From the NCBI GenBank assembly GCA_032718475.1, contig JAUCBJ010006743.1:15705-79704 (forward strand): a DNA stretch of 64,000 nucleotides, in the 5' to 3' direction. Made by a program: the position numbers and the translations under genes. Numbering within the stretch: position 1 is the first letter of the stretch; each line of letters starts with the position of its first letter. The notes below the pieces were generated by a model. It was not told where the DNA came from. It searched no databases and was given only the letters and a program-made list of their open reading frames with translations. Positions 1,426-64,000 of the stretch are shown in pieces. Source of the DNA: Nemertoderma westbladi. Taxonomy: Eukaryota > Animalia > Xenacoelomorpha.

Positions 1426-2979
1426 CTACTCCAGGATGAAGATCGCTAGTGATACTCCTCCACTGAAATCTGCGCAGGTCCATGCTATTAAAGATCTTCC
1501 CAAATACAAGGTATCGGAGCGATTTCTGACGGAGAAGATCAGTTACCAGGAGCATGAAGAAACCAATAAGAAGATACTGAGACTCCTACAATGCTATGAA
1601 GATTCCGATAAGTATTTCCTGTTGTTGAGAAATCCACAGATGCGCTTAAGGGATCGCTTCTCTAGCACAATGATAGATGGGTTAATACGTGTTGGAGGGA
1701 GACTAATTAATGCTCCATTATCCTTTGACACTAAATTTCCCATACTCATTAGAAATCTTGAAATACAAATCAAGATGATTGTAGCTGTTCACAGTAGGCT
1801 TTACCATGCTGGTAGAGAACGAGTTCTTAGCGAAATTCGAACTCGCTATTATTTTCATAAACCCCGTAGAGCTCTGAACCAAGTTCTTAGGAACTGTATA
1901 CCCTGTAGGAAAGCATTCAGTAGGCCATTAACACAGCGAGAGGCAGAATTACCTAGGGAACGAGTAAGCTTCTATAAACCACCCTTTACTAATACCGGTG
2001 TGGATTTATTTGGCCCTATTGAAGTATATCGTGCTAGGACTATAGTCAAGCGATGGTGTGTCATCTTTGTCTGTATGACTTGTAGAGCGATCCGTCTAGA
2101 TATCAACAGCTTCATATTTACGCCATGTACTTCATGTTTACGCCGACAGATTGCTCGCTTTGGAACTAGCAACACGATGAGATCTGATAAGGGAACGAAC
2201 TTCATTGGCGCCAATAATGAGATCAAGGCTTACGTTAAAGATTGGAACCAAAGACAGCTGGACGATCAGCTAAGGGTAACAGCATCTAGCTGGTTTTTCT
2301 AGCTAGAGGAAGTTGGGAGAGATTAATAAGAAGCGTGAAGACCGCATTTCACTTTATAGTGCCGTGCCGCGCGTATCTCACCGACGAACTTTTGCGGACG
2401 TTAATGGAAGAAATCGCCGCCTATCTTAACGAGAGACCGCTTATGCCAGTCTCATCAAGTCCCGACTCCCTGGAAGAGCTAACACCCGCGCACTTCCTAC
2501 TGAAGAAACCTGTAGCCATGCTACCACGATCGGAAATCACGGACGGAGATGAATACTGCCGACAAACTTGGCAACTTATGCAGTTGTTATCCCGTCGTTT
2601 TGCTGACCATTTCGAAAAACATTATCTGCCTACACTACAACTTCGAACCAAGTGGTTTGCGCAGCAAGAAAACGTCAGCGCTGGAGACATGGTTCTTATT
2701 GTGGAATCAGATCTTCCACGTAGACGGTGGCAGACAGGTCGTATCATCGAGACTCATATCTCCGATGATGGTTTAGTGCGATCTGTAGAACTCGTTGTCA
2801 TGCGACGTAACTTTAAGAAACCTGGAATTGTATTCGAAACGCAGCAGCTCAATCGCCCAGTTGGTCGTTTATGTTTACTGGAAAGAGACAGAGAACTATC
2901 TGGAAACTATGGAAGGCAAGATACTCTTCCCACGACCACCTCCCTAATCCTGCAAACATTTAGGGACTCCCCAACGTAG
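1426..2979 (+). pseudogene. BEL/Pao pol 3' part (integrase and C-terminal DUF5641-like region), disrupted
   Basis: Motifs GLIRVGGRL, H..H/C..C zinc finger (HSRLYHAG...CIPC), TGVDLFGP, SDKGTNF, LNERPL, LTPAHFL, YLPTLQLRTKW, DGLVRSV. A stop at 2300-2302 plus a frameshift/deletion removes part of the segment before WERLIRSV. Confidence 0.93.
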
Positions 2980-3499
2980 AGTTTGGAGTGGGTGTGTGAC
3001 TATATTATTTTATATTTGTTTTTATTATTTTTATATTTATGTATGTACTATTATGTAATTTTATAATAATCGTTTTCTTTAATTTTTTGTAGTAGAATGT
3101 TATTTTAGCGATTATTTAGTAGAATTAGTGCCATATATATTCGCGTTTATTACTTAATTACTTATATTATATATTTAGTGTAACGGCGAGAAATGATTCT
3201 TTTTCTCTTTCCTTACTGTCCGTATCATATTATAAATGCGTGACTACAGTAAGATGAAGTATCCATACTTATTAAAGTACAATAAAGCTCCTACTATACT
3301 CAAGTATTATTGGTAAGTAGAGTATTAGGAATGCAAAGTTCAGATCCTCGTGTCTCGGCTAAACCAAGCTCTGGGTAGACCTTGGAAACGACTTGCCTCT
3401 TCTCACTGACATTGCTTCTTGCAATATTGCTCTCATACCGTATATTAAATAATACATATAGTAGCGTGATGTCCCTTTAACAGTAGCGTAAAAACGCAA

Positions 3500-3910
3500 A
3501 ATAGATCTGTTAAACCCTTTGACCATCTGTAATTCTAGTCGATTAAGATATCGCGGCACCCACCGATATACTTGAAAGACAAAATTCTAGAATCAGTGGT
3601 TAACGTCCCCAGACAAGTTCTGGAATAATTCGGTGCCCATCTTAAATATTAATTATTTAATATTTATAAAAATCTATTAAAACAAATGTTATAATAGAGT
3701 AAATACATACAAATAAACTCTAAAGAGTTTGTAAACCAGGAAGATCTAGAAATCCAAAATCTGTTAAAATTCCAATCCTTTAAAATTCTAGTCGATTAAG
3801 ATATCATAGTACTTACCGATACTCTTAAAAAGACAAATTTCCTAGAATTAAGGATCCCAGTCCCCAGTCATGCTCTGGAATAAAATTGTGTCTATTTTAA
3901 TATTAAATAA
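3500..3910 (+). repeat. Diverged direct duplication (period ~253 bp) in the pol-ORF2 spacer of BEL #1
   Basis: AATTCTAGTCGATTAAGATATC...AAAGACAAA...GTCCCCAG...TCTGGAATAA occurs from 3531 and again from 3784. Confidence 0.75.
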
Positions 3911-4507
3911 TAAAATTTACGGGAATAAATTAAATTCATATCCTCTCATGAATTTGATAAATTGTCATTTTATACAATTTATAACATTCCCAAAATTCCA
4001 TTAATTAATAGATCATGGGAGCGGAGATTCACCCTATTAAGTATATTAGCGTGAGAGAATCTCCAAAATATAGTCAATAGCCGATAAAATTCATAAAATC
4101 ATATATAAAGGGGAATATTGACAATTAAAGAATTACTATTGAATAGCATCCCAGATCGGTATGCATGAGAATTACCCTAATTCTACTGCTAGCTTTCCAT
4201 AATGTCACCATAGCAACAACCACGCTAGAATTAGAAGCGAGTTAAAAGAACAATAGAAAGCTTGCCCCATTGAATAGCATACGGAATAAATAGCATACTG
4301 CTAGTATCCATCCAAGGATACATAATAATAACGTGGCATTCTGGAAGGCACTTGACTAACGGACAAATGGCCCGAATGTGTTCAATTTGAGACAGTTGTG
4401 TGGAATTTGTGCGTTTATAGGTGAATGTTGCTACTAAAGTGTGTTTACAGTAGCTAGTCGCAGTTGTGAAAGTAGCCCTACCTCTACAGTAAGAACCTGA
4501 ACTAAAT

Positions 4508-4670
4508 CTAAGCCCTTGGGACGGACAGTGGAGTGACTCACGCTGGTTATTGTTGTCGTTGTGTAGCTACTATGTTGGCGATAGGCACCGCGACAACAGT
4601 ACATCGGCGCTGAGGATCTTGCGCTGTCCGGGGCAGTGAGGGGAAGGCAGCAACGCCCACTAGCCTAATT
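4508..4670 (+). ncRNA. Conserved structured cis-RNA element (candidate IRES-like), copy 1
   Basis: Homologous to the reverse complement of 63241-63401, with compensatory changes in the stems. Ends ~40 nt before the ATG at 4709. Function is inferred. Confidence 0.7.
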
Positions 4671-4708
4671 AAAATTAATTATAATATTGATAAACTCATA
4701 TAGCAGCT

Positions 4709-7700
4709 ATGACTGAGTTGATAGAAGATGATCTTGGTATCAGGGAGCGATATACCTTACCGTTGCAAGCGTTTGTTGATAGCTTAATACACGGCGACGC
4801 TAGTCTAACTACTACGGAGGATGATGGCCGTTATATCGAACCGCCAATGTCCAAGGAACAACTCACGCGTGAATTGGACTATAGAAAATTCACCGCTTGC
4901 TATACGCATTGTAATGGTACTTATATGGACTTCTTAACTACTGGTCATCCTATTGATTTACACGATACGGATGGTGTAGACACCGAAAGGGAAATGGTTC
5001 TATTTAAATATCATACCCAGCGGAGTCGGAACGACAAACCGAGAATCGAACATAAGAATTATATTCGAAACCGACTCGAAAGAGAAGACGTTGAAGAGCC
5101 GGATAAACGCAGCGACTTCAACGAATATCTGGAATTCTTGAGAGAAACATATCTCAATATTGCCAGTCAACAAAATCTAGAAACTCGATATCCTCAAGGT
5201 ATACATCATGACCCTATGATAGAATTCAAACGGCTCTATTTCACTATGATGTATCTTACCGTCGATCGACCGCTACCTGTTGTCCCAGATAGTTTCGAAC
5301 AGATGGAGGAATATTGTAAAACTGGAGAACGATCACCCGCGTTTCCCCTACAGGACGTGCGTCTTTGGTATTATTGCGATGAATGCCCTAGACCCAACCA
5401 ACAAACTGAAAGACATAAACACCCGTGGAGACGTTGCGCTAAACACAGTTTTACTCGCTATACTTACGGGAGTTTCGAGCAAAACTTGTTCAACGTATCA
5501 CCTACGCTCGCTCGACTCAAACGTTCCTTAAATAAACCCATGATCGGAGTTCCGGAATACTCGGTCAGGCCTCTTCATTCCCTAGTGAGACCCCAAACTC
5601 TTGATCCTAATAGTATCACGGATCCTCCCGAACTGTACTCACTGTTCAAAGATTTGGTGTTACCCGAACAATTAATCGGTGGCACCCCAGTAGTGGGCTC
5701 TCTAGATATTCGCCCATCGTACCTATCCGGATTGGGACGCGGACATCTAATATCGCCATTCAACCCATACAATCGTCTCAGTTTAACCCCGATACAACCC
5801 GTCACTGAAGTTGAGGAGGGCGTTGTACGAAATGCGTTAGACGCTATTTGGCAGAAGATCGGAAAGGGAACCTACGATTGTTTAGAGAAACGCCGATTGC
5901 AGCAACAAGTCCAAGCGGTGAAGGAGTTGGCCTTACCCCAGTTTGATCGAGAAATCCAGAACCTCGAGGAAGACATCGAACTTGTACGAACCTATTCTCT
6001 ACAAGAGTTTTTAGACAAACGCTTACAACGACAAGTGGAGGAAAATCAGCTCAAGGAGAAACACATCGAAATGGATGAGAGAGAAGTAGCAGCTTTAGCC
6101 CAACCAGAAGCTCAAATCCTTATGACTGATCTCTATTCCAAAACCATCATTCAACCCTCGATGGTTCCCCATTTCGGAGACAAACTCTTCGCAACGGTAC
6201 AACCCCAACCGGTTGATATCAACCTGAGATCTCAAGATCTTATTGCTGACGCTCCTATGTTACAGCGTCCGCCAATCGAGGCCGCTCGTGTCGACGGTAT
6301 ACTCGTTGAACCTCCGGACAATCGAGCGGATCTTGTCCGTCGTATGGTACACGAAGTCAACATACGCGCTAGACCTTTACCGAACTCGTTTTATGGGATC
6401 AAAGACCACCCTTATTATGTCAATCTAACACAATATTATATGGTAAAACCGGAAGATCCGACACATAGTCTAAAGTTTCTACCTCTAATAAATCCTCTCG
6501 ATCTTGTTGAACTCGAACAATTGCAGAAACATCTGGATCAGTTAGTGAAAGTAAACTCATTCAGAAAACCCTACAATGTTTCCAGAATAGAGAAGGATAT
6601 GACGCCTCCGTATAATCTCGATGGATTTATCAAAACTCGATTAGTCCATTGGAATCTCGGCGTATTATTCGAGGAAGAGAGAATACAAAGATATGGAGAT
6701 GTAGAGACGTATACTACACAGTATCTGAAGTATAGGGATCTCCCTAACGCTAGCGAATGCGCCACCTTGTGGCATCCGGTCGGGATGACCCTAGAGAACG
6801 CCACTAAAGAGTGGAACGAAACTCTTAACGTTATCGAAATGTATGGAGTTGTCACTTATGATAACAAAGGTAGTGTTCCGGTCGGAGAACTGGGAACTAC
6901 GCGCATGATACATATACGAGGACTAGCTGGTTCTACCCACGTGTTTACTCGAGCGTGTTTTGATGTGATTGATTATTCTTTTGAGACTCTCACCGAGATA
7001 CAAAAGAAACTCCGACATAGACAATTCGAACTCGCGCAGCGTTACGTCACGGATACTGAGCATAAACCGGCCATGGGTATAGATGGATCGATGTTACCCC
7101 AGCCAGTGCTTGAGATGTTGTTTATTGAAAGAATCCTTAAAATCGGCTCAGCTGTTTATGGAGATCTCCAAAACGACTTCAGGAACATGGAGAATATTCC
7201 ATATCCTTTCGTAGACACCCAGCTGATTGCTCCCTGGGCAGAAGGGCAAGGTTTCTTCCGAACTATGTATGCCAATACACCCAGCGGCATAAATAAAGTA
7301 CAACGAACCTCCATCGGACATCTTGCCTTCCAAGAATACGGATGGAATTTCAAAGTAGGAAACCCTATCAACTATCAACAAGTATATGGAGATCATTATT
7401 CTCGATTATACTTCGACGGACCATTGACCGCACCTGGCGTCGTGTATAGCTTCATGAGTAGACTTCATGAGGTTCCCCTTTGCCCCTCATTAGCTATATA
7501 CACTATCCTCGAGAACGCCGCACTTGCCGGTTGGATAGCTGATGAGTGCAGTCGTACTATACGCGCCTATCCCTTGATACTTGGAACCAAGCTCGCCAAG
7601 CTAGATGGACACAATAAATTCATCCGCTTCGAATGCTTTAGGCACTTTCTGACTCCATTCCGTAACGTTGATAGTCAGTTCAAGGACCGCGCTCTGACCA

Positions 7701-7927
7701 AGCTCAGCCTAAGAGACTCAGCTGCTGAGAAGTTAGACAGTGCTGGATTCACCATTTTCAAAGACGTGTGTATACAGAACTTACATTCCTCTGTTATACA
7801 AAGACCTCGAATCCCCACGGGTTATTCTATTGTGGAAGTTCAGACACTGGGTTTGCTTGAGGAGACAGCTACACCTATCTCCGCTATGCAATTGGAAGAC
7901 GAACCAAAATGCTTACAATCCGATTAG
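4709..7927 (+). CDS. Accessory ORF of BEL #1: 1072 aa, Cys/His cluster near the N-terminus, C-terminal DEDDy/WRN-like 3'-5' exonuclease-like domain; the frame continues past the TAG into a zinc-knuckle-like motif
   Basis: Exonuclease-like motifs VVTYDNKG, LPQPVLEML..ILKIGSAVYGD, FVDTQ, SIGHLA, AIYTILEN are collinear with those in ORF 9356-11890. The same frame continues to CRLCASQDH...C before the LTR at 8110 cuts it. Confidence 0.7.
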   Translation: MTELIEDDLGIRERYTLPLQAFVDSLIHGDASLTTTEDDGRYIEPPMSKEQLTRELDYRKFTACYTHCNGTYMDFLTTGHPIDLHDTDGVDTEREMVLFKYHTQRSRNDKPRIEHKNYIRNRLEREDVEEPDKRSDFNEYLEFLRETYLNIASQQNLETRYPQGIHHDPMIEFKRLYFTMMYLTVDRPLPVVPDSFEQMEEYCKTGERSPAFPLQDVRLWYYCDECPRPNQQTERHKHPWRRCAKHSFTRYTYGSFEQNLFNVSPTLARLKRSLNKPMIGVPEYSVRPLHSLVRPQTLDPNSITDPPELYSLFKDLVLPEQLIGGTPVVGSLDIRPSYLSGLGRGHLISPFNPYNRLSLTPIQPVTEVEEGVVRNALDAIWQKIGKGTYDCLEKRRLQQQVQAVKELALPQFDREIQNLEEDIELVRTYSLQEFLDKRLQRQVEENQLKEKHIEMDEREVAALAQPEAQILMTDLYSKTIIQPSMVPHFGDKLFATVQPQPVDINLRSQDLIADAPMLQRPPIEAARVDGILVEPPDNRADLVRRMVHEVNIRARPLPNSFYGIKDHPYYVNLTQYYMVKPEDPTHSLKFLPLINPLDLVELEQLQKHLDQLVKVNSFRKPYNVSRIEKDMTPPYNLDGFIKTRLVHWNLGVLFEEERIQRYGDVETYTTQYLKYRDLPNASECATLWHPVGMTLENATKEWNETLNVIEMYGVVTYDNKGSVPVGELGTTRMIHIRGLAGSTHVFTRACFDVIDYSFETLTEIQKKLRHRQFELAQRYVTDTEHKPAMGIDGSMLPQPVLEMLFIERILKIGSAVYGDLQNDFRNMENIPYPFVDTQLIAPWAEGQGFFRTMYANTPSGINKVQRTSIGHLAFQEYGWNFKVGNPINYQQVYGDHYSRLYFDGPLTAPGVVYSFMSRLHEVPLCPSLAIYTILENAALAGWIADECSRTIRAYPLILGTKLAKLDGHNKFIRFECFRHFLTPFRNVDSQFKDRALTKLSLRDSAAEKLDSAGFTIFKDVCIQNLHSSVIQRPRIPTGYSIVEVQTLGLLEETATPISAMQLEDEPKCLQSD

Positions 7928-8109: not shown

Positions 8110-8646
8110 TGTGACGGGATCCAGGAGGGATCCCGATTTATCCGATGTGGTATTTAGTCCACGCGTCCCCGCCGTGTATAAGAGTGAAATAAAGATAACT
8201 GAGTTCTGAAGTTCGGTGTATAATAAGAGGTTATAGGATATAGATATATTGTGAATGTGTACAAGGCGGGATACGGTAACTAAAGTCCCGTGATCCCCTA
8301 ACTAAACTAATTGGCTGTACCCTACGCTAGCACTGCTGCACTGAGATAACTGAATCACTGATTAATAGGTTATTGGTTATATTGCACGGTGGCCTTACTG
8401 CTACTCAATCGATGCCATTCCCCCCTCTGATTGGTTAATACCCTTGTTGGCGCCCCGTGGAGTATTCCCGTTCACTCCACCTGTTCTCTCTGGGTTAGGG
8501 GTTTGGCCCCTGACCCTCTATTGTGTGCTTCCTTCCCACTCTTATTGGGATGGCACGAGTTGGTTAATTGCCCAATCTCGTGGCTCCCAATATTGCTTAT
8601 CGGCTAATAACTTTATGGGGTGTTGGCGGGATTGAATAAGCTAACA
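8110..8646 (-). repeat. 3' LTR of BEL #2
   Basis: Plus-strand TGTGACGGGATCC...GAATAAGCTAACA, differing from 21817-22354 by about 4 substitutions and 1 indel by eye. Confidence 0.95.
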
Positions 8647-9355: not shown

Positions 9356-11890
9356 TTATCTGTACCTCCTCACGTCCTCCTCCCTGGCCCGTTTCTTGGT
9401 TATCACCGCTCCTCTGGCATCATCCGCTTTCTGCTTCCGGACCTTTGCCGCCACTTCCTTGCTGATCCCGGTCGTCGGCTCCTTGGGCGCTGGTGTTATT
9501 AAAGCCCGATACCGCTTCGCCGGTGGCCCCTCAGAATGGCCTGGTTGTTTCCCTCGTGTGGCGTCCCATAGGATCATCTTCATTGCCTTTGGTACGTGTT
9601 CCGCCAAGAAATCCCTAAACTCCCTCCGGTTCTCTGGTGTCCACCTGTCCAGGTACCGTTGCGTGTTCATAACTCCGGCGAACGATGCCGCCGTAGCTAC
9701 CTCTTGATAGGTAAACGGTAACCTTCGCTTTATGATTTCCATGTGGGTCTCCTGGTTTATGAGGAAGAAACCCCACTTGAACTCTTGGGCCTTCATGCGC
9801 TGGCGCATCATGGCCCCGACGTCGGCCCACTCCTCGAACCTCGTGAACTTCTCCTCGTCACTCATCCAGTCGCACTCGCGCCCGTAGTGTCCCCGAAAGT
9901 GGCACTTTGGACATCGGTTATGCAACCGTGGACACGCCCCCATCCTGTGACTTGGTTCTCTACAATAGAGACAAAAGGTTCCCCGTTGGAACCGGTATAG
10001 GCAGCTGCTTTCCTGATGGGTCTGTCTCCCACAGTAGTCGCAGCCGAGTACCAATGTCTCGCGTCCCACCTCGTCCTTCGTCCCAAGCGATCTCCGCGGT
10101 CTATGGAGTCGCTGGTAGGCAAACTTCTCCACGTTGCTCTCCCTGTTTACGTCGATCTCTCCGCCCCTCTCGGGCATCGTCTCCCCGAATACTATCCGTG
10201 GTGCCGTCCCCGGTTGCTCGCCCAACCTGATGGTGCTCCCCGCGAAATCCATCGCCGGCCCCTCGTGCACACAGGTCCGCTTGCCGGATCTGTTCCAGAA
10301 GGCCCTCGCCCCACTGGCCGTCACCACCCTTCCGCCAACCCAGTCCGTGTCCGAGTGGCCTATCCTTTCGATGGGCGGCATCTCTCCGAACTCGTCGTCG
10401 TCGTCCTCCTCTTCTGGTAGTGTCTCCAATCCCGGTATCCCGATGGATCCACTATGTCCCTTCCCGCCTTGGCTCTCGCCCGTAGCTCTCCATCCCTCTA
10501 GCTCCCTTAACTTCCTTGGCGGTTGGTCGCCCTCGGCGCCCGCTGGTATGGGCATCGCGTGCAACCCCGACGTCGACTGTTTCGGCGATCCCACCGTCCA
10601 TCCCAATTCTCGCCCTAGAGACTCCCCCGAACTCCCCGACGAAGTCCAATGAAGTTCGTCTAGGCCCGCCTGTTCCTCGAAGCCGTAACTCTGTGCCCTG
10701 GCCTCCTCTTCCCTCTCCTCTGCTTCTATCCTCTCCCGTCTAGCGACTTCTTCCAGTCGCTTTGCTTCCCGTCTATCCATCTCTAGCTGCTCCCATCTCT
10801 GATACGGTGTATCCGTCTCCCCATCTACCAGATGTCGGCTGTTGTAGTACACCGACTCGCCCTTCAGCCCCGGGTGGTCTACCAGACCGTCAAAGGCCGT
10901 CTTAAAGGCTCTCCTGTAGCTTAGGGGTGATCCCGATAACAGAAATGCCCCTGGTTCTCTTTCGATAACTACGGTCATGAATAAGTTAAGTAAACTTATC
11001 ATCATCCAGTCCTCCTGCAGGATATATCGCTTCTGATATACCTTTATCGCTCCTCTGCGAAACTGATATACCTCCTGCTTTCCCGGTCTCGCTCCCCACT
11101 TCAGCGAGTTCGCTAGTTCTGCTCCGTATTCTTCCCTAAACTTCCCCCAATCCATTGGTTTGTGGCATACGAGCCCCAATAATTGGCCCATCGCCACCGC
11201 CCCGCATTGGCCTGAGTTCTCGACCACCCCCAATCCATCCGGTGCCGTCATAGCCATAAAGACTTTCTGCATATCCAGGAGGTTGGTGGCGTCCGGACCG
11301 ATGATCCTCTCCGCGTCCTCGCGAATCGCCGATCCCACTTTCGTCGTCGACTTCTCTCTTACTAAGACCTGTACCGCTTTCGGCAGTCGGTCTAATTTCG
11401 GCCCGTCCTTCTTCCCATACGTCCCTAGGTCGAATAAGAAGATGTCCCCATTTGGCGCTGCCAAATGCAAGAGTATGGTCCTGGCCGACCCTGCCGTTCC
11501 TCGTCTCGAACCCGCTTCGTCTTCCACGGTTCCCTCGTCATCTAGGATCATATATCCTCCTCTGTTGACGGACTCTATGAATCTTTTCCAGTCCTTCCTC
11601 GGCGATTCCCTCGGATACTTCGGAATCCCGAACTTCGCCTCGTCTCCTTTCACCACGTAGTGGAAGTGTTGGAAGATCGCGTTGTCCAGCGACGGCGTCC
11701 CGTAGGTCCCGACCAACCGCTGTTCGTGCGCCTCCCGGAAGTGATCCTGCAGCGCTCGTGCCGCGTGACCCCTTTCCAACCTCTCGTAGTATCCTCTCGT
11801 CTTCTCCTCCGGGTGTCTTTCGGTGAAATCCACCAATATTTCTTTTCCTCCTGACTCCGCCTTTCTCTTCCTGATCAGCTTACTCGCCAT
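9356..11890 (-). CDS. Accessory ORF of BEL #2: DEDDy (WRN/EXD-like) 3'-5' exonuclease domain, coiled/acidic linker, three CCHC zinc knuckles
   Basis: ExoI MILDDEG; LHLA..GDIFLFDL; LPKAVQVLV..KVGSAIRED (ExoII); NLLDMQ; QKRYILQED (ExoIII-like). Knuckles CDYCGRQTHQESSC, CLYCREPSHRMGAC, CPKCHFRGHYGREC. First ATG at 11890; basic NLS-like stretches at both ends. Confidence 0.82.
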   Translation of the reverse strand: MASKLIRKRKAESGGKEILVDFTERHPEEKTRGYYERLERGHAARALQDHFREAHEQRLVGTYGTPSLDNAIFQHFHYVVKGDEAKFGIPKYPRESPRKDWKRFIESVNRGGYMILDDEGTVEDEAGSRRGTAGSARTILLHLAAPNGDIFLFDLGTYGKKDGPKLDRLPKAVQVLVREKSTTKVGSAIREDAERIIGPDATNLLDMQKVFMAMTAPDGLGVVENSGQCGAVAMGQLLGLVCHKPMDWGKFREEYGAELANSLKWGARPGKQEVYQFRRGAIKVYQKRYILQEDWMMISLLNLFMTVVIEREPGAFLLSGSPLSYRRAFKTAFDGLVDHPGLKGESVYYNSRHLVDGETDTPYQRWEQLEMDRREAKRLEEVARRERIEAEEREEEARAQSYGFEEQAGLDELHWTSSGSSGESLGRELGWTVGSPKQSTSGLHAMPIPAGAEGDQPPRKLRELEGWRATGESQGGKGHSGSIGIPGLETLPEEEDDDDEFGEMPPIERIGHSDTDWVGGRVVTASGARAFWNRSGKRTCVHEGPAMDFAGSTIRLGEQPGTAPRIVFGETMPERGGEIDVNRESNVEKFAYQRLHRPRRSLGTKDEVGRETLVLGCDYCGRQTHQESSCLYRFQRGTFCLYCREPSHRMGACPRLHNRCPKCHFRGHYGRECDWMSDEEKFTRFEEWADVGAMMRQRMKAQEFKWGFFLINQETHMEIIKRRLPFTYQEVATAASFAGVMNTQRYLDRWTPENRREFRDFLAEHVPKAMKMILWDATRGKQPGHSEGPPAKRYRALITPAPKEPTTGISKEVAAKVRKQKADDARGAVITKKRAREEDVRRYR

Positions 11891-12394
11891 TCCGAACACT
11901 ACACTCGCTCACCTGTAGGGTGGTGCCTTACCAAGGCGCAATACAGATGAGTGATGTATTAAGATGTTCCGATACAGTTCGATAATGGCCTACTTTTCTA
12001 CTTAACTGCGCCTTTCAAGCTTAATTTAATCTAATTAATTTCGGAGCTAGTAAATCAGCCTAATTTACAATTTCCGTCCGTTACTTTTATTATGTTCTAG
12101 AACGACTTTCTTTGTGTTACCACTATTTTCCGATTTTAGCCCTATTCTATTTATTTGTTTATTTTGCTTTGATTCTACTGTCCTACTACTTACTACTGCC
12201 TATGGATTTATTCTATTCTCTCTCTGATCCATATTCTGGCCTACTCAGTGGGCCTATGCAGTACAGCAGTATGCGTCGTGTGGCCACACGATTTATCCAG
12301 CTGCACTCATATGCCCCCCTCTCGCTACTAACTCTACTTATTGCTAACTAATATCTATATCCTATTTACCCCTTTTACCTCTTACTCTCTCTCT

Positions 12395-13100
12395 CTAACT
12401 AATGGTACTACGTACCCTCTAACTCTAACTCTGACTAGGTACCACGTACCTACTAACTCTAACTCTAACTAGGTACTACGTACCTACTAACTCTAACTCT
12501 AACTAGGTACTACGTACCTACTAACTCTAACTCTAACTAGGTACTACGTACCTACTAACTCTAACTCTATCGGTACTACCTACCCTCTAACTCTAACTCT
12601 GACTAGGTATTACGTACCTACTAACTCTAACTATCGGTACTACGTACCCTCTAACTCTAACTCTAACTAGGTACTACGTACCTACTAACTCTCTAACTAT
12701 CGGTACTACGTACCCTCTAACTCTAACTCTAACTATGTACTACGTACCTACTAACTCTAACTCTATCGGTACTACCTACCCTCTAACTCTAACTCTAACT
12801 AGGTACTACGTACCTACTAACTCTCTAACTATCGGTACTACGTACCCTCTAACTCTAACTCTAACTAGGTACTACGTACCTACTAACTCTAACTCTATCG
12901 GTACTACCTACCCTCTAACTCTAACTCTGAGTAGGTATTACGTACCTACTAACTCTAACTATCGGTACTACGTACCCTCTAACTCTAACTAACTAGGTAC
13001 TATGTACCTACTAACTAACTAATTTTAGGTACTACGTACCTACTAACTAACTAACTAACTAACTCTAGGTACTACGTACCTACTAACTAACTGACTAACT
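12395..13100. repeat. Tandem array (~30-36 bp units) of TAGGTAC-TAC-GTACCTA hairpins separated by (CTAACT)n, between pol and the accessory ORF
   Basis: Directly visible. TAGGTAC and GTACCTA are reverse complements. Confidence 0.9.
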
Positions 13101-13209
13101 CTTATTTTTATTTTATTTTATTTTATTTTGTGTGGGAAGGGCGTCTCGCCCTCAATCCCACCCCCCTCAGTCCAAAACTTGGACGACTAAACTCCACACT
13201 AACTCCGCT

Positions 13210-21816: not shown

Positions 21817-22354
21817 TGTGACGGGATCCAGGAGGGATCCCGATTTATCCGATGTGGTATTTAGTCCACGCGTCCCCGCCGTGTATAAGAGTGAAATAAA
21901 GATAGCTGAGTTCTGAAGTTCGGTGTATAATAAGAGGTTATAAGATATAGATATATTGTGAATGTGTACAAGGCGGGATACGGTAACTAAAGTCCCGTGA
22001 TCCCCTATCTAAACTAATTGGCTGTACCCTACGCTAGCACTGCTGCACTGAGATAACTGAATCACTGATTAATAGGTTATTGGTTATATTGCACGGTGGC
22101 CTTACTGCTACTCAATCGATGCCATTCCCCCCTCTGATTGGTTAATACCCTTGTTGGCGCCCCGTGGAGTATTCCCGTTCACTCCACCTGTTCTCTCTGG
22201 GTTAGGGGTTTGGCCCCTGACCCTCTATTGTGTGCTTCCTTCCCACTCTTATTGGGATTGGCACGAGTTGGTTAATTGCCCAATCTCGCGGCTCCCAATA
22301 TTGCTTATCGGCTAATAACTTTATGGGGTGTTGGCGGGATTGAATAAGCTAACA
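21817..22354 (-). repeat. 5' LTR of BEL #2
   Basis: Near-identical to 8110-8646, with TG...CA ends. Confidence 0.95.
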
Positions 22355-25778: not shown

Positions 25779-26711
25779 TTAGCCTACCCGGATGTTGGGG
25801 TTGGCTCTGGGATCCAGGAAGGGGTCGTCATTGGCTACCGCCCGACCATAGCTGCTCATTATGTAAACCAAAGTAAGGAACCCGACCAACACGAGGATCA
25901 GCGTCATAACGAACCGCTGCCTGTGACGGGCCGAGCTGGCCCGGTATATTCCACGGTTCACGCGCGACTTCAGCCACCGCGAGAGGAACACCAACGGCCC
26001 CTTACGCTTGTATTTACTCTCTCCGTCTTCCTCACCGTCGCCCACATCCACGAGACTCGCCGTGTCCGCGAACGAGTCATGCGACTTCCGTTGCAACCCG
26101 AGGTGTGACGTCACTTCCGGTTTACTAGAAGGATTCCCGAAGCCGTCCGGTGGAATGTTGATAGAGGTATTTCCCGATTTCAACGTGGGGTTTATCACCG
26201 CGATGTTTCGGTTGGGTTGGGTGGCGGCGTTGGGCGCCAGGGGTTGCTCGGAGTAGGGAGTGCTGAAGGCCCCACCGACCGGGGCCGTTGGGGGCGCCTC
26301 GATGAGGGGCAGACCCAGCCCGGGGCGCGCCCAATTAGCCGTAATCAGTTTCTCTTTTAGGGCGTCGGCCACAGGAGAAACGAGATTCGCCGGGGGAAAC
26401 AACTTTACTTGGCACAAGCGGCACGTGTAACCGGCTGGTGCGGTAGTACCGGGGAGACTCGCGAAATAGCGCTCAGCGCAGTCCCAATGGTAGACGTGGT
26501 AGCAGACGAGACGGACAGTCTCACCCTCGGACAGGGTCCCGTTGCAGACCCCGCAGCTTGAGTTGTAGTCGCTGTCCTGGAGCCACTGTAAGTAGGACTG
26601 GATGACGCACCGGGGATGGTTGGCCACCAAGCAATGTTCACACACGTTGACTCGATGTTCGAAGCAGAATAGATTGGTTACCTTGCGTTTCGGACACTTG
26701 CAGAGACCCAT
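25779..26711 (-). CDS. ZFPL1: Zinc finger protein-like 1 (cis-Golgi membrane protein), intronless
   Basis: Hallmark N-terminus MGLCKCPKRKVTNLFCFEHRVNVCEHC...QSYLQWLQDSDY, RING-like region, TAPAGY, WARPGLGLPLI, KYKR, C-terminal TM helix, DPFLDPRANPNIRVG. ATG at 26711. Confidence 0.96.
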   Translation of the reverse strand: MGLCKCPKRKVTNLFCFEHRVNVCEHCLVANHPRCVIQSYLQWLQDSDYNSSCGVCNGTLSEGETVRLVCYHVYHWDCAERYFASLPGTTAPAGYTCRLCQVKLFPPANLVSPVADALKEKLITANWARPGLGLPLIEAPPTAPVGGAFSTPYSEQPLAPNAATQPNRNIAVINPTLKSGNTSINIPPDGFGNPSSKPEVTSHLGLQRKSHDSFADTASLVDVGDGEEDGESKYKRKGPLVFLSRWLKSRVNRGIYRASSARHRQRFVMTLILVLVGFLTLVYIMSSYGRAVANDDPFLDPRANPNIRVG

Positions 26712-57365: not shown

Positions 57366-59032
57366 AAAAGCTTTTGTGGGATAACTGATTCGTTTGCCTT
57401 GTTGGCCAGTTCCCCCCCAGTCGCTAAGAATACTCTCAAAGTGATCTACAGCTAAAAATAGTGCAAGTTACCAGCTTATTGGCTGATTTGCTGTACGCAG
57501 GCATCTGGGCTCTGTTTAATCGGCCAACAAGCCTAGGGAGGTTGCGTCATAGCCTTGTTTTGTATCTCCCAATAGAATTTGAGTTATCCTTGATGTTGAC
57601 CTATCACAGAGTACTGAACTGAAAATTTCCTATCTCACTGCTCTTTCTCTGTGTTGAACGGGAGCTTCGTGGAATAAGGGAGTTGGTATCCTCGTATAGA
57701 GCAGTAGTCACGAGTTTTTCAAAGCCACGAAAGAACGGCTTTGTAGTGTTTTATGCTTTCTGCTTTTTAGCTCAACACTAGGAGGTTTAATTATAAGGAC
57801 ATATATCCTTTAACTGACCTGGCTGCAATTACGCATCAAACAACCTGGCTTTAAACTCTGTAAATATCAAAACAAACTGGCACGATTGATCTGTGAATAC
57901 TGCATACTGCTATTTGTTGTCGGTTATTCATTATATTTGTTGATGAATTATTATATTGGAATAACGAGAAATAACCCCGACACCCAATATTCTTGATATA
58001 CCGAAGGTAAGAGAGAAAGGTTACCAATAACGATTGTGACTTATGTTAAAGTGGTTTGAAGTGAATCTAATGTTATTTGATAGACCCTACATGAGTCAGT
58101 CTGTGTTCCTTTTATATGTGATTAAAATCAGTGAAGATTGGCAGATTAGTGTGCAGTATTGTGCAGCATTGCGTATGAGCGAGTCTGTTAAAGAAGCAAT
58201 TCCTAAAGAATGCGCCATATATGTGAATTATAATTAAGCCATATCGTTGTGAGTAGTTTAAGTCATAACTCTGTTTATATAGATAAAGCGCCACGTCCTA
58301 AAGGAACTGTTAATATTCCCGAAAGTGAATAATATTGTCAGAGATTATATAATACTGTCAGTCGAATAATACATTAAGCTTACATAGCAATAAAATTAAA
58401 CCGTCGAACCCAATCTCCCGGGAATATCCAGCGGGTGAATGGTCGCGCACGGATTGGTTTCGACTAGTGTAGTGAATCAAATACTTGTCATAGGCTAAAA
58501 AGCGATTTAATATCTAGAAGACATCTTAATTTGGCGGGTTAAACTGCCAAAGGTCTGAAAGCGCGAACATTAAAGGATATAGCTTCTTTGTTGCAGTAAG
58601 CAATAAAGTTGAAAGTACCGGTCAACCGGTAAACCTGACCGGTACATTCTGTAGGTCAGTAGGCCTAACTGTTCTAACCGGTACTTCCGTATAAGTACAC
58701 TAGTATTATTCGATTTGATTGTTGTATACCGGTAGGCTGTTTAAGGGATTAGGGATTGATCACCCTTATTCCTTTATATGGTTTACTTATTTCTGTCAAG
58801 TTTTATTTATTTGTAGGCCAGTATTGAACAGAAGGCGTGTAAACCTGATCAGATTGTACAGACGATTTGTAGGCCGAGCTGTTGTCTGATTGCTGTTAAG
58901 TCCGAACGAATTGCAGTATGTGTAGATCACCTGTCCGATTAAGTACGATTAGGCAGTAGGGGCAGCGAATGCTGTAAGGTAAACCCCCAACTAAAGAATA
59001 AGTCGCACTACTGGGTTAGAGCGCATACTCCC

Positions 59033-59343
59033 TATTGGGATCGGAAATAAATGAATACCAGCTGCATCAGTTTATTAATGGTCGACATACAGAACAGCAT
59101 ATCAAACAATAATATGAACCAACAGACCAACGAACACACCCACCACCTTCATTGACCTTACAGCACATCAGTACAGCAGTACAGTAGGTACCGGTAACGG
59201 TTACAGTACCTACAGACCTAGAAGATAGGAAAGACTGAATACCGGAATACCAGAAGAGGACCGGTAGGTAAAAGACCAGTAGGTTGGATCTAACCACCAC
59301 CAAGCCAGGGTCTACTAGAGCCCTAACAATACATAATCTAACA
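59033..59343 (-). repeat. 3' LTR of the Gypsy element
   Basis: Matches 63578-63888; preceded by CTCCC. Confidence 0.95.
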
Positions 59344-59414
59344 TCTCCCCCAAGAACAATGTAGGAGACATTTGTACTGAAAAAAAAAAATCCAACCACC
59401 ACCAATAGGTCAGT

Positions 59415-62400
59415 TCATTGAACTCCGAATCTTGCTGGTTGCTTGTGAGTTCTCGAACTGCGCCTGGGAAGATCATCAGCGAACTGTACATGTTTTTGAG
59501 GCGTTATATCACGAAGAGAAGAGTCATCTGGGATGGAACGTAGATAACGACGATTTCTCCAATACACCCGACCATTGTCTAGTTCTATCCGGTAATCTCG
59601 CCTAGTACCACGGGAAAGGACGATACCAGATTTGTTCCATAGTTTGGAATGTGCACTCTGGATGCAAACTCGGGAACCAATAGGAATCGGGGTTAAGTCG
59701 TGAGCATGATCATTATAATATGATTCAGTTGCTGAAGACGTTGAAGGACCAGGGATAGGGAATGAATCACCTGCCAGTGTGGACGAATGAGCTGGTATAG
59801 TAGAACGGAGGGATCTACCGAACAACAGTTGAGCTGGAGACATACCATGTTCTTTAGGAGTATTTCTCCATTCCAGCAAACCACGAACAAAGCAAGTAGA
59901 GTTTAGATCTCCTTTGACATCTAACTTTTTTATCAATGATTTCATGGCCTTTACAGCCCCCTCTGCATGGCCATTAGACTGAGGATACTCAGGAGTAGAA
60001 TACTCAGGGATGATATTCCATTCGGATAAGAAATCATGATAACGTGCTGAATTAAATTGTGTACCACCATCAGAACGAAGGCGTTTTGGAATACCGAAAT
60101 CTTTGAACCATCCTCGAAGAGCTGAAATAACTTGAGAGCTGGAAGGATCGGCACGCCAAGAATGAACGCATGGCCACCCAGAATATCTATCGACATAAAC
60201 CAGGTATGACCAGGTGCTGAAGTAGAAAAGATCAGCAGAGCAATCCTCCATTGGAAGACATGGATGAGGGTCGCTTTGGAGAGACTCTTTAGGTAAACTT
60301 GGTTGATAAATTTGACACTGGGGACAAGAATTGACTATGTTTGTAATATCGCTATTGATACCAGGCCAGAATACAGTTTGCCTAGCTCTCCTCTTAGAAC
60401 GTTCAATGCCCTGATGAGCATCATGAAGGTGCTTCAGGACATTCTTGCGGAGGGAAGATGGAATTACAATCCGGGAACCTAATAAAAGAAGATTATCTTC
60501 ACAAGATAACTGATGTCGCACATTCCAGAATGGGCGTATGTGCACAGAATATTGTGCGGATGTTGAGGGAAATCCAGAAATAACAGCATCCACCAAAGCC
60601 ATGTAAGAAATATCATCCTTTGCAGATGATCGGATAGACTCAATATATGAATGCTTGAGATGACTTGGAGCATCAGAGACAACAATTGAGGTAGACACGT
60701 GACGAATGACTGCAGAAACATGGTCATTGACATCTGTATCACAAAGAATATCCTCTGGAGTAGGATCCGAAACAGGGGCATGGGAAAGTGTGTCTGGAAT
60801 CGAATCGATATCGGAAGTGATGTCGGAAGTGATATCGGAAGTGATATCGGAAGTGATATCGGAAGTGATATCAGAAGTGATATCGGAAGTGATATCGGAA
60901 GTGATATTGGAAGTGATATCGGAAGTGATATCGGAAGTGATATCGGAAATGATATCAGAAGTGATATCAGAAGTGATATCGGAAGTGATATCGGAAATGA
61001 TATCGGAAGTGATATCAGAAGTGATATCGGAAGTGATATCGGAAATGATATCGGAAGTGATATCAGAAGTGATATCGGAAGTGATATCGGAAGTGATATC
61101 GGAAATGATATCGGAAGTGATATCAGAAGTGATATCGGAAGTGATATCAGAAGTGATATTGGAAGTGATATCGGAAGTGATATCGGAAGTGATATCAGAA
61201 GTGATATCGGAAGTGATATCGGAAGGATGGACCCAATCAGTTGGTTCGTTATCCAGAACTGGACAAATAATACCTTGTTCAACCATTTTCTCTAAGCGAG
61301 CTTTAGCCCAGTCTCTAATGGCTAAAGGAAGTTGCCTGGCTGTATGAATAGCATATGGTTGGGCATCATCTTTTAATGAAATGGTCATGGGTGGGCCATT
61401 CATTGGACGAAGTTTGTCATCTTGGTCAAAAACATCAGAATAAGCCTTTATGAGTTTCTGCTTAACAGTATCCCATTCTGAAGGCGAAGGTTCATCAGAA
61501 AGATGGAAGTCAACCTTGAATGATGTTGTTGGAATTGAGTTTTTAATACCAATTGGTGACATATTAGAAGAATTAGAAGAAGCAACAGACTGAATTTCTG
61601 CCACTGGTTCTGGATATGAACTTGAAATAATTCCTAGGTTTTGACAAGTATACCATGCCAAAAGAATTCCATCGACTTCTTCACAAATGCAGATAAGCTC
61701 ATCAGTTGAATATTCACCATAGGAAATTGTGGTGTGGAGGAGACCAATGCATGAAAGAAGACTACCATTAGCAGCAGAAAGATCATCATGGTCTGGTGGA
61801 AGTAGATTTTCTTTGTCAATAGAAAGGGCCTGAAGAAAATCTAAGCCAGCAACAGTGGCCTCAGCACCAGTATCTGGAGTTGCTTTGAGAGAACCGAATA
61901 AATGTCCTGTTGCAATATGACAGAAGTTCAGAAATACTTTCGGAGCTTGACGATTATGGCTTCCAACCAAATTGAGGGTGATGCGGCTAATGGGTTTTGT
62001 CTTAGGTTTTGAAGATGAATTCGAATTATTTTGTTTAGACCGACAAACATTGGCAAAGTGGCCTTCCTTGCCACAATAAGAACAATCTTTGTTCCTTGCT
62101 GGACAGTCAGCGCGTTTATGGTCTGTTTTACCACAACCATAACAAACTATAGGGCCAGTAGTTGAAGAATTGTTTCTGGATTTGGATTTAGAAGAATTGT
62201 TGCGCCTGGAATTATAAGGCTTTTTGTTGTGAAAACGAGATTGTCGAGAAGCTTGGTTGATTGAAGGGTTTTTTAAATCCTGAACTCCAGCTTGGGCTGA
62301 TTCCTCAGACCTACAAAGATTTACAGCATCTTCAAGCGAAGGAAATGGAGTCAATGCAAGAAGTTTAGATCTGGTGTCCTCGCAAGAAATACCAGACATA

Positions 62401-63047
62401 ATTCGAGTAGTCAACCGCCGATCGAAACAATGACGACATAGATCAGCATCTCGAGCAAGATCTTTAATAGCAACCAGGTAGCTATCAAAATTTTCACTTT
62501 GACGTTGTTTCCTATTATCAAACTGAACACAATCAAGGGCTATATTCCGTTTACCACGAAAATAACTTTGAATACAATCTATTAACACCTGAACTGTTAA
62601 AGGATTATCATGTGTGTCAGGAGGAATGTCAATAACTTGTTCCAGTGTAGAGCGCATACCTATAGAAAGGTAACTCCTGAAAATACAGATTTGCCTATCC
62701 CTAGCCATTCTATCCATCTGAAATGCAGAATAATAATCCGCCCAAACCGACTTCCAAGTTTCAAATTTTGCTAAACTGAAATCCGGTTCTAAAGCAATTG
62801 GTGCTTTAATTTGAAGATTACGAGGGGTTGAGTCAGCCTGATGAACTACAGGTTGATGTGGTTGACCAAGTAATTGTTGAAATTGATGGGCATTTTGGGC
62901 TTGGGATTGTGCTAAGGAATCAGCCAAATCGCGTTGTGATTTAACTAAAGCATGTAGAAGAGCTGAGGTGGGATCAGGATTACCACGACCAGCCAACTGT
63001 TCTCTTAAAACCTCCAGTTCGGTTTCGAGTTCAGCTTTAGTAGGCAT
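59415..63047 (-). CDS. Gypsy Gag-protease-(SDIT repeat)-integrase fusion lacking RT/RNase H
   Basis: Gag (KQRQSENFDSY), knuckles CYGCGKTDHKRADC and CSYCGKEGHFANVC, protease PDTGA. The RT start (MVEQGII...WVHP) is followed by SDIT repeats, then IPDTLSH, then integrase (HDAHQG, CPQC, ADLF, SDGG, AEGAVK). Confidence 0.92.
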   Translation of the reverse strand: MPTKAELETELEVLREQLAGRGNPDPTSALLHALVKSQRDLADSLAQSQAQNAHQFQQLLGQPHQPVVHQADSTPRNLQIKAPIALEPDFSLAKFETWKSVWADYYSAFQMDRMARDRQICIFRSYLSIGMRSTLEQVIDIPPDTHDNPLTVQVLIDCIQSYFRGKRNIALDCVQFDNRKQRQSENFDSYLVAIKDLARDADLCRHCFDRRLTTRIMSGISCEDTRSKLLALTPFPSLEDAVNLCRSEESAQAGVQDLKNPSINQASRQSRFHNKKPYNSRRNNSSKSKSRNNSSTTGPIVCYGCGKTDHKRADCPARNKDCSYCGKEGHFANVCRSKQNNSNSSSKPKTKPISRITLNLVGSHNRQAPKVFLNFCHIATGHLFGSLKATPDTGAEATVAGLDFLQALSIDKENLLPPDHDDLSAANGSLLSCIGLLHTTISYGEYSTDELICICEEVDGILLAWYTCQNLGIISSSYPEPVAEIQSVASSNSSNMSPIGIKNSIPTTSFKVDFHLSDEPSPSEWDTVKQKLIKAYSDVFDQDDKLRPMNGPPMTISLKDDAQPYAIHTARQLPLAIRDWAKARLEKMVEQGIICPVLDNEPTDWVHPSDITSDITSDITSDITSDITSNITSDITSDITSDITSDIISDITSDITSDITSDITSDIISDITSDITSDITSDIISDITSDITSDITSDIISDITSDITSDITSNITSDITSDITSDITSDITSDITSDITSDITSDIDSIPDTLSHAPVSDPTPEDILCDTDVNDHVSAVIRHVSTSIVVSDAPSHLKHSYIESIRSSAKDDISYMALVDAVISGFPSTSAQYSVHIRPFWNVRHQLSCEDNLLLLGSRIVIPSSLRKNVLKHLHDAHQGIERSKRRARQTVFWPGINSDITNIVNSCPQCQIYQPSLPKESLQSDPHPCLPMEDCSADLFYFSTWSYLVYVDRYSGWPCVHSWRADPSSSQVISALRGWFKDFGIPKRLRSDGGTQFNSARYHDFLSEWNIIPEYSTPEYPQSNGHAEGAVKAMKSLIKKLDVKGDLNSTCFVRGLLEWRNTPKEHGMSPAQLLFGRSLRSTIPAHSSTLAGDSFPIPGPSTSSATESYYNDHAHDLTPIPIGSRVCIQSAHSKLWNKSGIVLSRGTRRDYRIELDNGRVYWRNRRYLRSIPDDSSLRDITPQKHVQFADDLPRRSSRTHKQPARFGVQ
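60805..61224. repeat. 12-bp tandem repeat (GGAAGTGATATC)n, ~35 copies, in frame
   Basis: Directly visible; encodes (SDIT)n on the minus strand. Confidence 0.97.
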
Positions 63048-63240
63048 ATCTGACTGTTGAATATTAGAGAAATTTCAGGAAATTAAATATCCGAAAAAAT
63101 TTGCAAAATCCGAAAAGAAAAAATTTTGCAAAAATGTGCAAAACTTTTGCATGCAAATCAGCCAAAATCTGTAGTTATCGAATACTGGCAGACTGGAATA
63201 CTGCCTGACTGCTGAATGTGAATAGGTACCGGTAGTTTCT

Positions 63241-63401
63241 AATTAGGCTAGCGGGCGTCGCTGCCTACCCCTCACGGCCCCCGGACAGTGCAAGGTCCTC
63301 AGCGCCGATGTACCGTCATCGCTGTGTTTTTCGCCAACGATGTAGCTACACAACGACAACGATAACCGCGAGCCACTCCACTGTCCGTCCCAAGGGCTTA
63401 G
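63241..63401 (-). ncRNA. Conserved structured cis-RNA element (candidate IRES-like), copy 2, in the Gypsy 5' leader
   Basis: The reverse complement aligns end to end with 4508-4670. It lies between the PBS and the gag ATG. Confidence 0.7.
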
Positions 63402-63563
63402 TTTAGAAGAGTACTGGAGTAGGTACACCACCGGAAGTATAGGTAGGTAGCTAGGCCTAGATCAGAATCAGTAGAGGCGACCGGTAGAATAATATTGAAT
63501 TATCTGACCTGCTGAATGCGCTGGAATGTCCACCATTTGAATAGGGTTGTAGGAACATCAAGT

Positions 63564-63577
63564 ACATCACTGCGCCA
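63564..63577 (-). promoter_or_regulatory. Primer binding site (TGGCGCAG, tRNA-Ser-type)
   Basis: TGGCGCAGTGATGT lies immediately 3' of the 5' LTR. The tRNA assignment is from recall of similar Gypsy PBSs. Confidence 0.75.
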
Positions 63578-63888
63578 TATTGGGATCGGAAATAAATGAA
63601 TACCAGCTGCATCAGTTTATTAATGGTCGACATACAGAACAGCATATCAAACAATAATATGAACCAACAGACCAACGAACACACCCACCACCTTCATTGA
63701 CCTTACAGCACATCAGTACAGCAGTACAGTAGGTACCGGTAACGGTTACAGTACCTACAGACCTAGAAGATAGGAAAGACTGAATACCGGAATACCAGAA
63801 GAGGACCGGTAGGTAAAAGACCAGTAGGTTGGATCTAACCACCACCAAGCCAGGGTCTACTAGAGCCCTAACAATACATAATCTAACA
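63578..63888 (-). repeat. 5' LTR of the Gypsy element
   Basis: Matches 59033-59343; followed by CTCCC. Confidence 0.95.
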
Positions 63889-64000
63889 CTCCCTAATCAT
63901 TTCGGAGTCTGCATGTCCTGTAGTTTATTTAGGCTTGAGAGTAGTCTGCCATCGTTTGGTCTGTACTTTGTTTGTGTAAGTCTGTACGGGTAGCGTATAA

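Follow-up and report, generated by a model that had tools for sequence, protein, structure and literature searches.

Type IV (HCV-like) IRESs (internal ribosome entry sites) are described as having a IIId hairpin with GGG, a IIIe element and a IIIf pseudoknot by which the AUG is positioned (bioRxiv 10.1101/2025.05.12.653553; PMC13034579), and type 6 IRESs as having a terminal pseudoknot (PKI) directly before the first codon (PMC13273307). The latter source also reports exchange of IRESs among RNA viruses by recombination and calls the origin of viral IRESs obscure. In caliciviruses, UGGGA is the TURBS word reported to pair with helix 26 of the 18S rRNA (PMC5972666). IRES activity has been reported for the leaders of Drosophila gypsy, VL30 and LINE-1 (PMC10974842), and the MusD MTE and CTE-type elements are described as long bulged stems with kissing or pseudoknot contacts (PMC4588558). 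Extra ORFs of LTR elements, of which DEDDy ORFs are known from bdelloid LTR elements, are described as typically expressed from spliced messages (PMC5408684).

The DNA analysed here (the window) is a 64,000-nucleotide stretch of Nemertoderma westbladi contig JAUCBJ010006743.1. It holds two copies of a motif that, judged from two full sequences under one species label, is a real and apparently undescribed structured RNA module found across LTR superfamilies, and not an HCV-like IRES. Copy 1 lies at 4508..4670 on the forward strand and copy 2 at 63241..63401 on the reverse strand, in the 5' leader of a Gypsy element (element C). Comparing the window with itself by BLASTN, with the satellite masked, aligned 4502-4674 (+) with 63406-63237 (-) at 85.6% identity over 174 nt (E 5e-49), and both borders of this alignment are the end of similarity. 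The first-pass annotation had proposed two copies at these positions and strands, each in sense orientation relative to the next ORF and with unrelated flanks, and all of this was borne out. The spacing of about 40 nt that it gave between motif and ORF is right for copy 1, which ends 38 nt before a 1072-aa orphan ORF, and wrong for copy 2, which ends 193 nt before the gag ATG. No third copy was detected with a profile and a covariance model in 1-31500 or 58500-64000, the parts outside the satellite.

Both copies fold better than their shuffled versions (z -3.99 with 0/200 shuffles folding better for copy 1; z -3.55 with 1/200 for copy 2). The sense strands reach -71.5 and -71.8 kcal/mol in copies 1 and 2, against -48.9 and -50.8 for the antisense strands, as expected of an RNA rich in G-U pairs and unlike a DNA palindrome. 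The statistically supported part is a central bulged rod (4523..4629, +) of about 42 predicted pairs, closed by a 6-nt apical loop that is the most variable part of the motif (3/6 positions differ between the copies). With the rod predicted solely from copy 1, all 42 pairs survive the 15 substitutions of copy 2, against a mean of 5.7 broken pairs when the same 15 substitutions were placed at random (P 6e-5, 200,000 trials); a 3-nt deletion in copy 2, which removes three rod pairs, was left out of this test. With the pair 4536-4617 added to the rod, there are two double-sided and five one-sided pair changes. A shuffle control (126/500) has no power with two rows. The outer stem and the long stem that had been proposed, with the changes named for them, were recovered in the predicted folds and the pair-by-pair comparison, and within the rod the differences do preserve pairing as had been claimed. 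Selection on the RNA fold of the motif is thus well supported by the modelled pairs. Immediately 5' of the rod, the segment UUGGGAC (4516..4522, +), which contains UGGGA at 4517-4521, is identical in both copies.

The remainder of the proposed architecture fared less well. The two 3-bp hairpins of the four-way junction drawn in the first-pass annotation have a pair probability of 0.0000, and the junction fold reaches -40.4 kcal/mol against -52.9 for the rod. Positions 4536 and 4617, which lie in separate loops of the junction, change together from A-U to G-C as a rod pair. As the junction costs 12.5 kcal/mol and this double-sided change runs across it, the core is better drawn as a bulged rod. 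A possible closing helix (4513..4642, +; 4513-4518 with 4637-4642) is not above chance: the CCCUUG/UGAGGG and GGGC/GCCC helices fit both copies, but equal ones arise in shuffled segments (P 0.19/0.39 and 0.24/0.53, respectively) and neither basal helix varies between the copies. The nested fold with closing helix, rod and 3' hairpin lies 3.6 kcal/mol off the minimum in copy 1 and near the minimum in copy 2, and in one diverged contig the fourth pseudoknot pair is broken and the closing strand carries indels. The 3' hairpin (4644..4667, +) has modest support, two copy 2 differences converting predicted mismatches to pairs. A possible pseudoknot between its loop GCCC (4655-4658) and the G-rich linker (4631-4634) is not above chance, and a G-quadruplex, permitted in the folding, was not chosen.

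For comparison within one species label, copy 1 and its flanks were aligned with contigs from four DNA runs, which represent at most three samples (1016, 2542, 3470 and 40 contigs). We used the best-supported 40 of 155 variant rows, which are unphased and pre-selected by support; 19 of them fall inside the motif. Among these best 40 of 155 rows, no variant falls in UUGGGAC and none of the 11 rod variants breaks a pair (P 0.003); for the 6 of the 11 that are absent from copy 2, the P for no broken pair is 0.026. Many letters of copy 2 are common variants in the contigs aligned on copy 1, and both copies therefore come from one recent pool. The motif, the spacer and the ORF start lie together on one 411-nt contig that has 60 other letters and 10 gaps, and the link between motif and ORF is therefore older than copy 1. 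Among the diverged contigs, alignments stop at 4633 or begin at 4511-4516; several align only within about 4511-4633, and the conserved core is, on these alignments, the UUGGGAC segment, the rod and the G run. Contig depth dips at 4639-4672; neither the dip nor the summed depths were given weight.

Copy 2 begins 173 nt past the 5' LTR of element C (59030..63893, -), which we take to be Ty3/Gypsy from its protein make-up. Its LTRs (63575-63893 and 59030-59349) are 99.4% identical and flanked by the target-site duplication GGGAG, and a primer-site-like word starting with TGG follows the 5' LTR. The gag-protease-integrase ORF (59415..63047, -) has zinc knuckle and integrase domains. Relatives of residues 80-500 of its protein, at 24-43% identity, are mostly proteins with reverse transcriptase, RNase H-like and integrase regions in a single ORF, and in element C an in-frame 12-nt repeat stands in for about 375 residues of the reverse transcriptase/RNase H region. 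This repeat, at 60797-61224 (-), makes up about 143 codons of Asp-Ile-Thr-Ser units, and the ORF remains open. Between copy 2 and gag lies a 25-codon upstream ORF (63075..63152, -), which shares the gag frame and has its stop 27 nt short of the gag ATG. Downstream of copy 2, the next 120 nt (63095-63214, -) fold with a z of about -5, from 10 shuffles only, on account of A/T-rich inverted tracts overlapping the 25-codon ORF. Among viral contigs, 0/42 related loci of the Gypsy gag were confirmed.

On the side of copy 1, a remnant of a BEL/Pao integrase region in two frames (element A; 1772..2979, +) shows DUF5641 and is 32-36% identical to a complete BEL/Pao polyprotein at 13210-19551. Its integrase stop is followed by a purine tract and an LTR-like stretch (2993..3318, +; TATAAA at 3231, AATAAA at 3281), which may be an LTR and occurs just once in the window outside the satellite; copy 1 lies about 1200 nt further on. 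A TGG at 3311, directly after the LTR-like 2993-3310, overlaps a donor-like GTAAGT at 3313. An AU-rich spacer (4671..4708, +; 18% GC) separates copy 1 from the 1072-aa ORF, and its first acceptor-like AGs, at 4702-4703 and 4705-4706, lie 35 and 38 nt past the branch-point-like CTAAT at 4665-4669. There are 19 YTRAY and 60 YAG words in 2980-4710, and with splice-like words this common, we regard the donor-, branch- and acceptor-like words around copy 1 as leads. By likeness to the neighbouring BEL/Pao element B, it is plausible that the ORF at 4709 is the second ORF of a BEL/Pao element; alternatively, copy 1 and this ORF may sit in a separate unit starting at 2993. The two polyproteins of the superfamilies resemble each other in weak integrase similarity only. 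Taken together, the alignment, the pair-preserving changes and the element contexts support the view of the first-pass annotation that one RNA structure is common to a Gypsy element and a BEL/Pao-linked unit.

Several smaller observations concern the same regions. Both BEL/Pao elements have a purine tract after the integrase stop and a further ORF beyond it (2985-3318, +; about 13150-13170, -). The leader of copy 1 contains an imperfect tandem duplication (75%; 3531-3666 and 3784-3919, +), whose first unit forms three hairpins (z -2.6) and whose second folds less well (z -1.3). With a common variant at 4707, the 5 nt before the orphan ATG equal the 5 nt before the gag ATG (4704-4711, +, and 63052-63045, -), each with an acceptor-like CAG.

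The 1072-aa ORF (4709..7927, +) had no match among 7993 candidates in a word-indexed search and none in the Atlas. Its single distant relative among 1.84 billion representatives (P0001, E 2.5e-4) is in turn similar to element B's second ORF (E 8e-15 and 2e-9), and the aligned segments of the three proteins share D, LP, KxGS and D motifs. Matches to DEDDy exonucleases (Pfam, PDB-profile, Foldseek) agree with each other, all of them below significance. The two structure models used have low confidence (pLDDT 31 and 37), and EXD2 chains take 10/10 of the top Foldseek places at E 0.2-0.5; at these E values and pLDDT we take the EXD2 likeness as a hint. A chain of sequence matches running through the one distant relative thus weakly suggests that the C-terminal part of the ORF is DEDDy-exonuclease-like. 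A common domain of this putative kind occurs in the BEL/Pao-linked second ORFs at 9356-11890 (-) and 4709-7927 (+), and a Cys/His knuckle region in the second ORF of element B is also present in P0001. The LTRs of element B (8110-8646, 21817-22354) are 99% identical; the 5 bases flanking them are mismatched and no target-site duplication was seen. Upstream of its second ORF, 11885-11990 (-) folds with a z of -3.4 across the ATG and an acceptor/donor-like CAG-GTGAG, 12240-12330 (-) forms a hairpin tipped with a 16-nt palindrome, and a compound tandem repeat with 34- and 66-nt units (12387-13100) lies between pol and the second ORF.

The likeness to domain III of type IV IRESs that the first-pass annotation had seen was not upheld. 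The motif is without a IIId GGG loop, a IIIe element and a four-way junction, its basal strands run in another order, and the AUG is 38 or 193 nt away. GGG appears in a hairpin loop in 1/2000 sampled nested folds of copy 1 and 2/2000 of copy 2. In IIIe the loop sequence is GA[U/C]A, and such a tetraloop forms in 1/2000 and 0/2000 sampled folds. Nor is there an AUG-positioning pseudoknot of the IIIf type, the basal helices being at chance level. The motif does share with this class, which includes compact forms such as the megrivirus E 3' IRES, a length within the 118-179 nt of the smallest domain III cluster (bioRxiv 10.1101/2025.05.12.653553). It also shares one long stem and a possible basal pseudoknot, an ORF directly downstream, mobility between lineages and the word UUGGG; in contrast to type IV IRESs, it resides in retrotransposon DNA and not in an RNA virus.

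With type 6 (dicistrovirus intergenic) IRESs, the motif has in common the length range of 120-260 nt, the location of copy 1 between ORFs and a long irregular stem followed by a possible pseudoknot, but the apical loop showed no conserved complementarity to the sequence downstream. A start of the type 6 kind was rejected: five in-frame stops, counted from 4670, follow copy 1 and two in the gag frame follow copy 2, and these stops, together with 2-nt indels in the copy 1 spacer among copies, imply that no codon is decodable directly after the motif. The type 6 elements PKII, L1.1a and L1.1b gave no Rfam match at E 10, in models that lack the newer subtypes 6c-6h. As in the TURBS of caliciviruses and influenza B, UGGGA follows a pyrimidine run able to pair with a downstream purine run; unlike in TURBS, the AUG has no upstream ORF ending close to it, the motif carries an inserted rod of 107 nt, and about 190 nt separate UGGGA from the copy 1 ATG.

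Marks of a SINE or MITE insertion, to which the first-pass annotation had looked for evidence against its proposal, are absent at both copies: there are no Pol III boxes, A6 run or tRNA, the terminal inverted matches are of 4 and 6 nt, and a 6-bp flanking repeat is found at copy 2 only, the repeats around copy 1 being of 4 bp. As the features of type IV, type 6, SINE and MITE are all missing, we file the motif under none of them. Known Rfam ribozymes (hammerhead, HDV-like, twister and others) were likewise rejected, with none at gathering score in the window and none at E 10 near the copies.

The retroelement IRESs (Drosophila gypsy, VL30, LINE-1, mussel Steamer-like element) resemble our case in occupying, like the motif, a leader of an LTR element before an ORF. 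They differ in being reported for single families, with no cross-superfamily structure in the material consulted (PMC10974842), a separation made by description and not by sequence. The RNA transport elements (MusD MTE, CTE, MLV PTE) are also structured, host-read and possibly engaged in long-range contacts. The MTE and PTE are, however, larger (about 400 and 1400 nt) and placed near the 3' LTR or in pol, and the motif has no Rfam match.

What does the motif do? Its likeliest role, in our view, is to draw ribosomes to an internal site of the RNA, from where they would scan on to the following AUG, and we give this reading a probability of roughly one in three; an IRES of a kind other than type IV is the single likeliest function. 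Unrelated Gag proteins and one module in both superfamilies point to a host reader or an autonomous activity, and we suppose that the reader would be a host factor. The small ribosomal subunit could be touched by the exposed UGGGA or by the G-rich linker, in the manner of TURBS motif 1 and HCV IIId, with the rod as a scaffold and the 3' hairpin fixing the entry point. Initiation would follow at the AUG after a short scan across the AU-rich spacer, without direct placement. The sequence after the copies is lower in GC (18% and 34% vs 56% and 60%), and a ribosome scanning from the 5' end would find 12 AUGs before copy 1 (counting from 3312) or 3 before copy 2, plus a fold of -71 kcal/mol, in its way. 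The sense copies, the ORF next to them, the upstream AUGs and the drop in GC fit internal entry followed by a short scan. We further assume that the motif was likely passed between the superfamilies by recombination. A narrower form of the proposal seems doubtful, namely a small IRES that would represent a new structural class, at home in retrotransposons of the host genome and not in RNA viruses, mobile between Gypsy and BEL/Pao, in which a TURBS-like UGGGA would grip 18S helix 26 next to the rod and a basal pseudoknot. The word UGGGA has 5 letters and would be partly paired in the presence of the closing helix, and its match is to the calicivirus TURBS word; its likeness to the TURBS core would for now count as a 5-letter coincidence.

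Several findings run counter to an IRES. The ATG distances differ fivefold, and copy 2 is followed by an in-frame upstream AUG whose ORF stops before gag; no core feature of type IV or type 6 was found; splicing could remove the leader, given GTAAGT at 3313 and acceptor-like AGs before both main ATGs; and element B has a related second ORF yet no motif by covariance model. The claim that a second ORF here would need internal initiation is weakened accordingly by the spliced extra ORFs, the upstream LTR-like stretch with its TATA box, the splice-like words and element B, with an IRES of another type still the likeliest function. Among other modes of translation, stop-restart reinitiation was rejected, as no ORF ends near either ATG save the 25-codon ORF of element C. 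For ribosome shunting, the nearest short upstream ORFs end about 50-60 nt ahead of the motif, and the spacing of upstream ORFs in pararetrovirus shunting is shorter than this.

The main rival, possible in our view and less probable than internal entry, is an export or localisation signal on unspliced genomic RNA, akin to the CTE, RTE or MusD MTE, which would sit inside an intron with the branch point and acceptor at or just past its 3' end. If the leader is an intron, the motif would mark unspliced RNA, which favours this reading or packaging. Such a signal is read by the host and could hence work in both superfamilies, copy 1 is located 3' of pol, and long bulged stems with kissing or pseudoknot contacts are known for such elements (PMC4588558). 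At the end of the motif stands the branch-point-like CTAAT; the first usable AG comes 35 nt later in copy 1 and 31 nt later in copy 2, and a donor-like GTAAGT is present at 3313. Against this, the splice-like words are as common as noted above, element C has no GTAAGT and contains two GTRAG words, one in the LTR and one within the motif, and one diverged contig has CTAAT altered at 4669. Moreover, the MusD element is described as adjoining the 3' LTR and not the leader (PMC4588558).

A packaging or dimerisation signal in the 5' leader, with the copy 1 unit a separate non-autonomous element from the LTR-like stretch at 2993, appears unlikely. Packaging signals usually lie between the primer site and gag, where copy 2 is, and the LTR-like stretch with its TGG would place copy 1 in a leader as well. 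Gammaretroviral packaging signals have GACG kissing loops, and the motif contains the palindrome GTAGCTAC and CG-bearing loops; the rod, however, already pairs the palindrome, and no part of the motif varies more than the apical loop. Such a signal is normally read by the element's own Gag, and weak integrase similarity is all that the two polyproteins share.

We consider it still less probable that the motif is an xrRNA-like knot, resistant to exoribonuclease, protecting the ORF-bearing 3' RNA after upstream cleavage. With both basal helices formed, the 5' strand would lie in a ring closed by a pseudoknot, the similarity between the copies starts a few bases before the closing helix, and intergenic xrRNAs before coding ORFs are described in plant viruses (PMC6299227). 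These basal helices are the ones that do not exceed chance, though, in a region that is the least conserved, diverged contigs stopping at 4633 or starting at 4511-4516; a 42-bp rod would have no role, and Rfam gave no match.

A self-cleaving ribozyme of an undescribed class, freeing a new 5' end for cap-independent translation, is very unlikely. It would be autonomous and so independent of superfamily, and in RNA viruses translation is reportedly driven by self-cleavage in UTRs (PMC13725137). Both copies contain CUGAGGA (4610-4616 in copy 1), which resembles half of a hammerhead core, but CUGAG is paired in the supported rod, GAAA is absent from the hammerhead position, and no Rfam ribozyme family matches even at E 10. 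Furthermore, in element C a cut within the 5' leader would separate the genomic RNA from its R region and primer site. That the motif is a passive piece, either a short repeat that was inserted or a remnant of recombination, with a fold that has lost its use, is the most improbable reading: both host elements are damaged and the 6-bp repeat AAACTA flanks copy 2, but the pair-preserving changes (P 6e-5), the strand-specific folding, the lack of Pol III boxes, A-tail and long terminal inverted repeat, the flanks of copy 1 with 4-bp repeats only and the stable ORF link in the diverged copy all weigh against it.

Searches of viral and metagenome contigs, phages and plasmids yielded no homologue of the motif outside the one species label. 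Exact-pattern scans of metagenome and viral contigs, with patterns that fixed a base variable in most copies, returned nothing. Gapped-pattern scans returned 34 viral and 120 metagenome loci, the latter from 60/64 parts. None of the viral loci matched inside the motif beyond 23 nt by BLASTN, and none of the metagenome loci by nhmmer at E 1 or, for the 100 tested, with the covariance model. BLAST of the motif against phages gave 24 records with one 26-nt chance match, and plasmids gave none. Rfam had 0 matches in the window at gathering score and, at E 10, 0 around copy 1 and 5 at chance level (E 0.87-9.9) around copy 2. In the mostly openly accessible literature, covered by titles and abstracts, nothing was found on the motif or on a non-coding fold common to LTR superfamilies; the portion consulted of PMC12221177 makes no mention of a retrotransposon, and that of PMC3118150 likewise holds nothing on the motif.

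Retrotransposon leaders are reported to carry IRES, export and packaging signals that are usually family-specific; one 160-nt fold kept by pair-preserving change in two superfamilies implies a module that is host-read or self-acting. The exchange resembles that of the accessory ORFs of bdelloid retroelements (DEDDy, GDSL), which are described as moving between unrelated retroelements (PMC5408684), the ORF after copy 1 looking DEDDy-like as well. Those modules are protein-coding, in contrast to this one, a non-coding RNA, so that module swapping between retroelement types would extend to non-coding sequence. If the motif is indeed an IRES, it would add a genome-resident class to a field in which the origin of viral IRESs is called obscure (PMC13273307).

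Elsewhere in the window, an intronless single ORF of 321 codons (25779-26744, -), which we take to be ZFPL1-like, encodes a protein with a RING-like finger and a hydrophobic stretch at the C terminus. At 28171-30295, a 68-nt tandem array stands between inverted repeats of about 110-135 nt, an arrangement that resembles a non-autonomous DNA transposon. A 27-kb satellite with 36-37 nt units (about 31300-58700) has long open frames on both strands.
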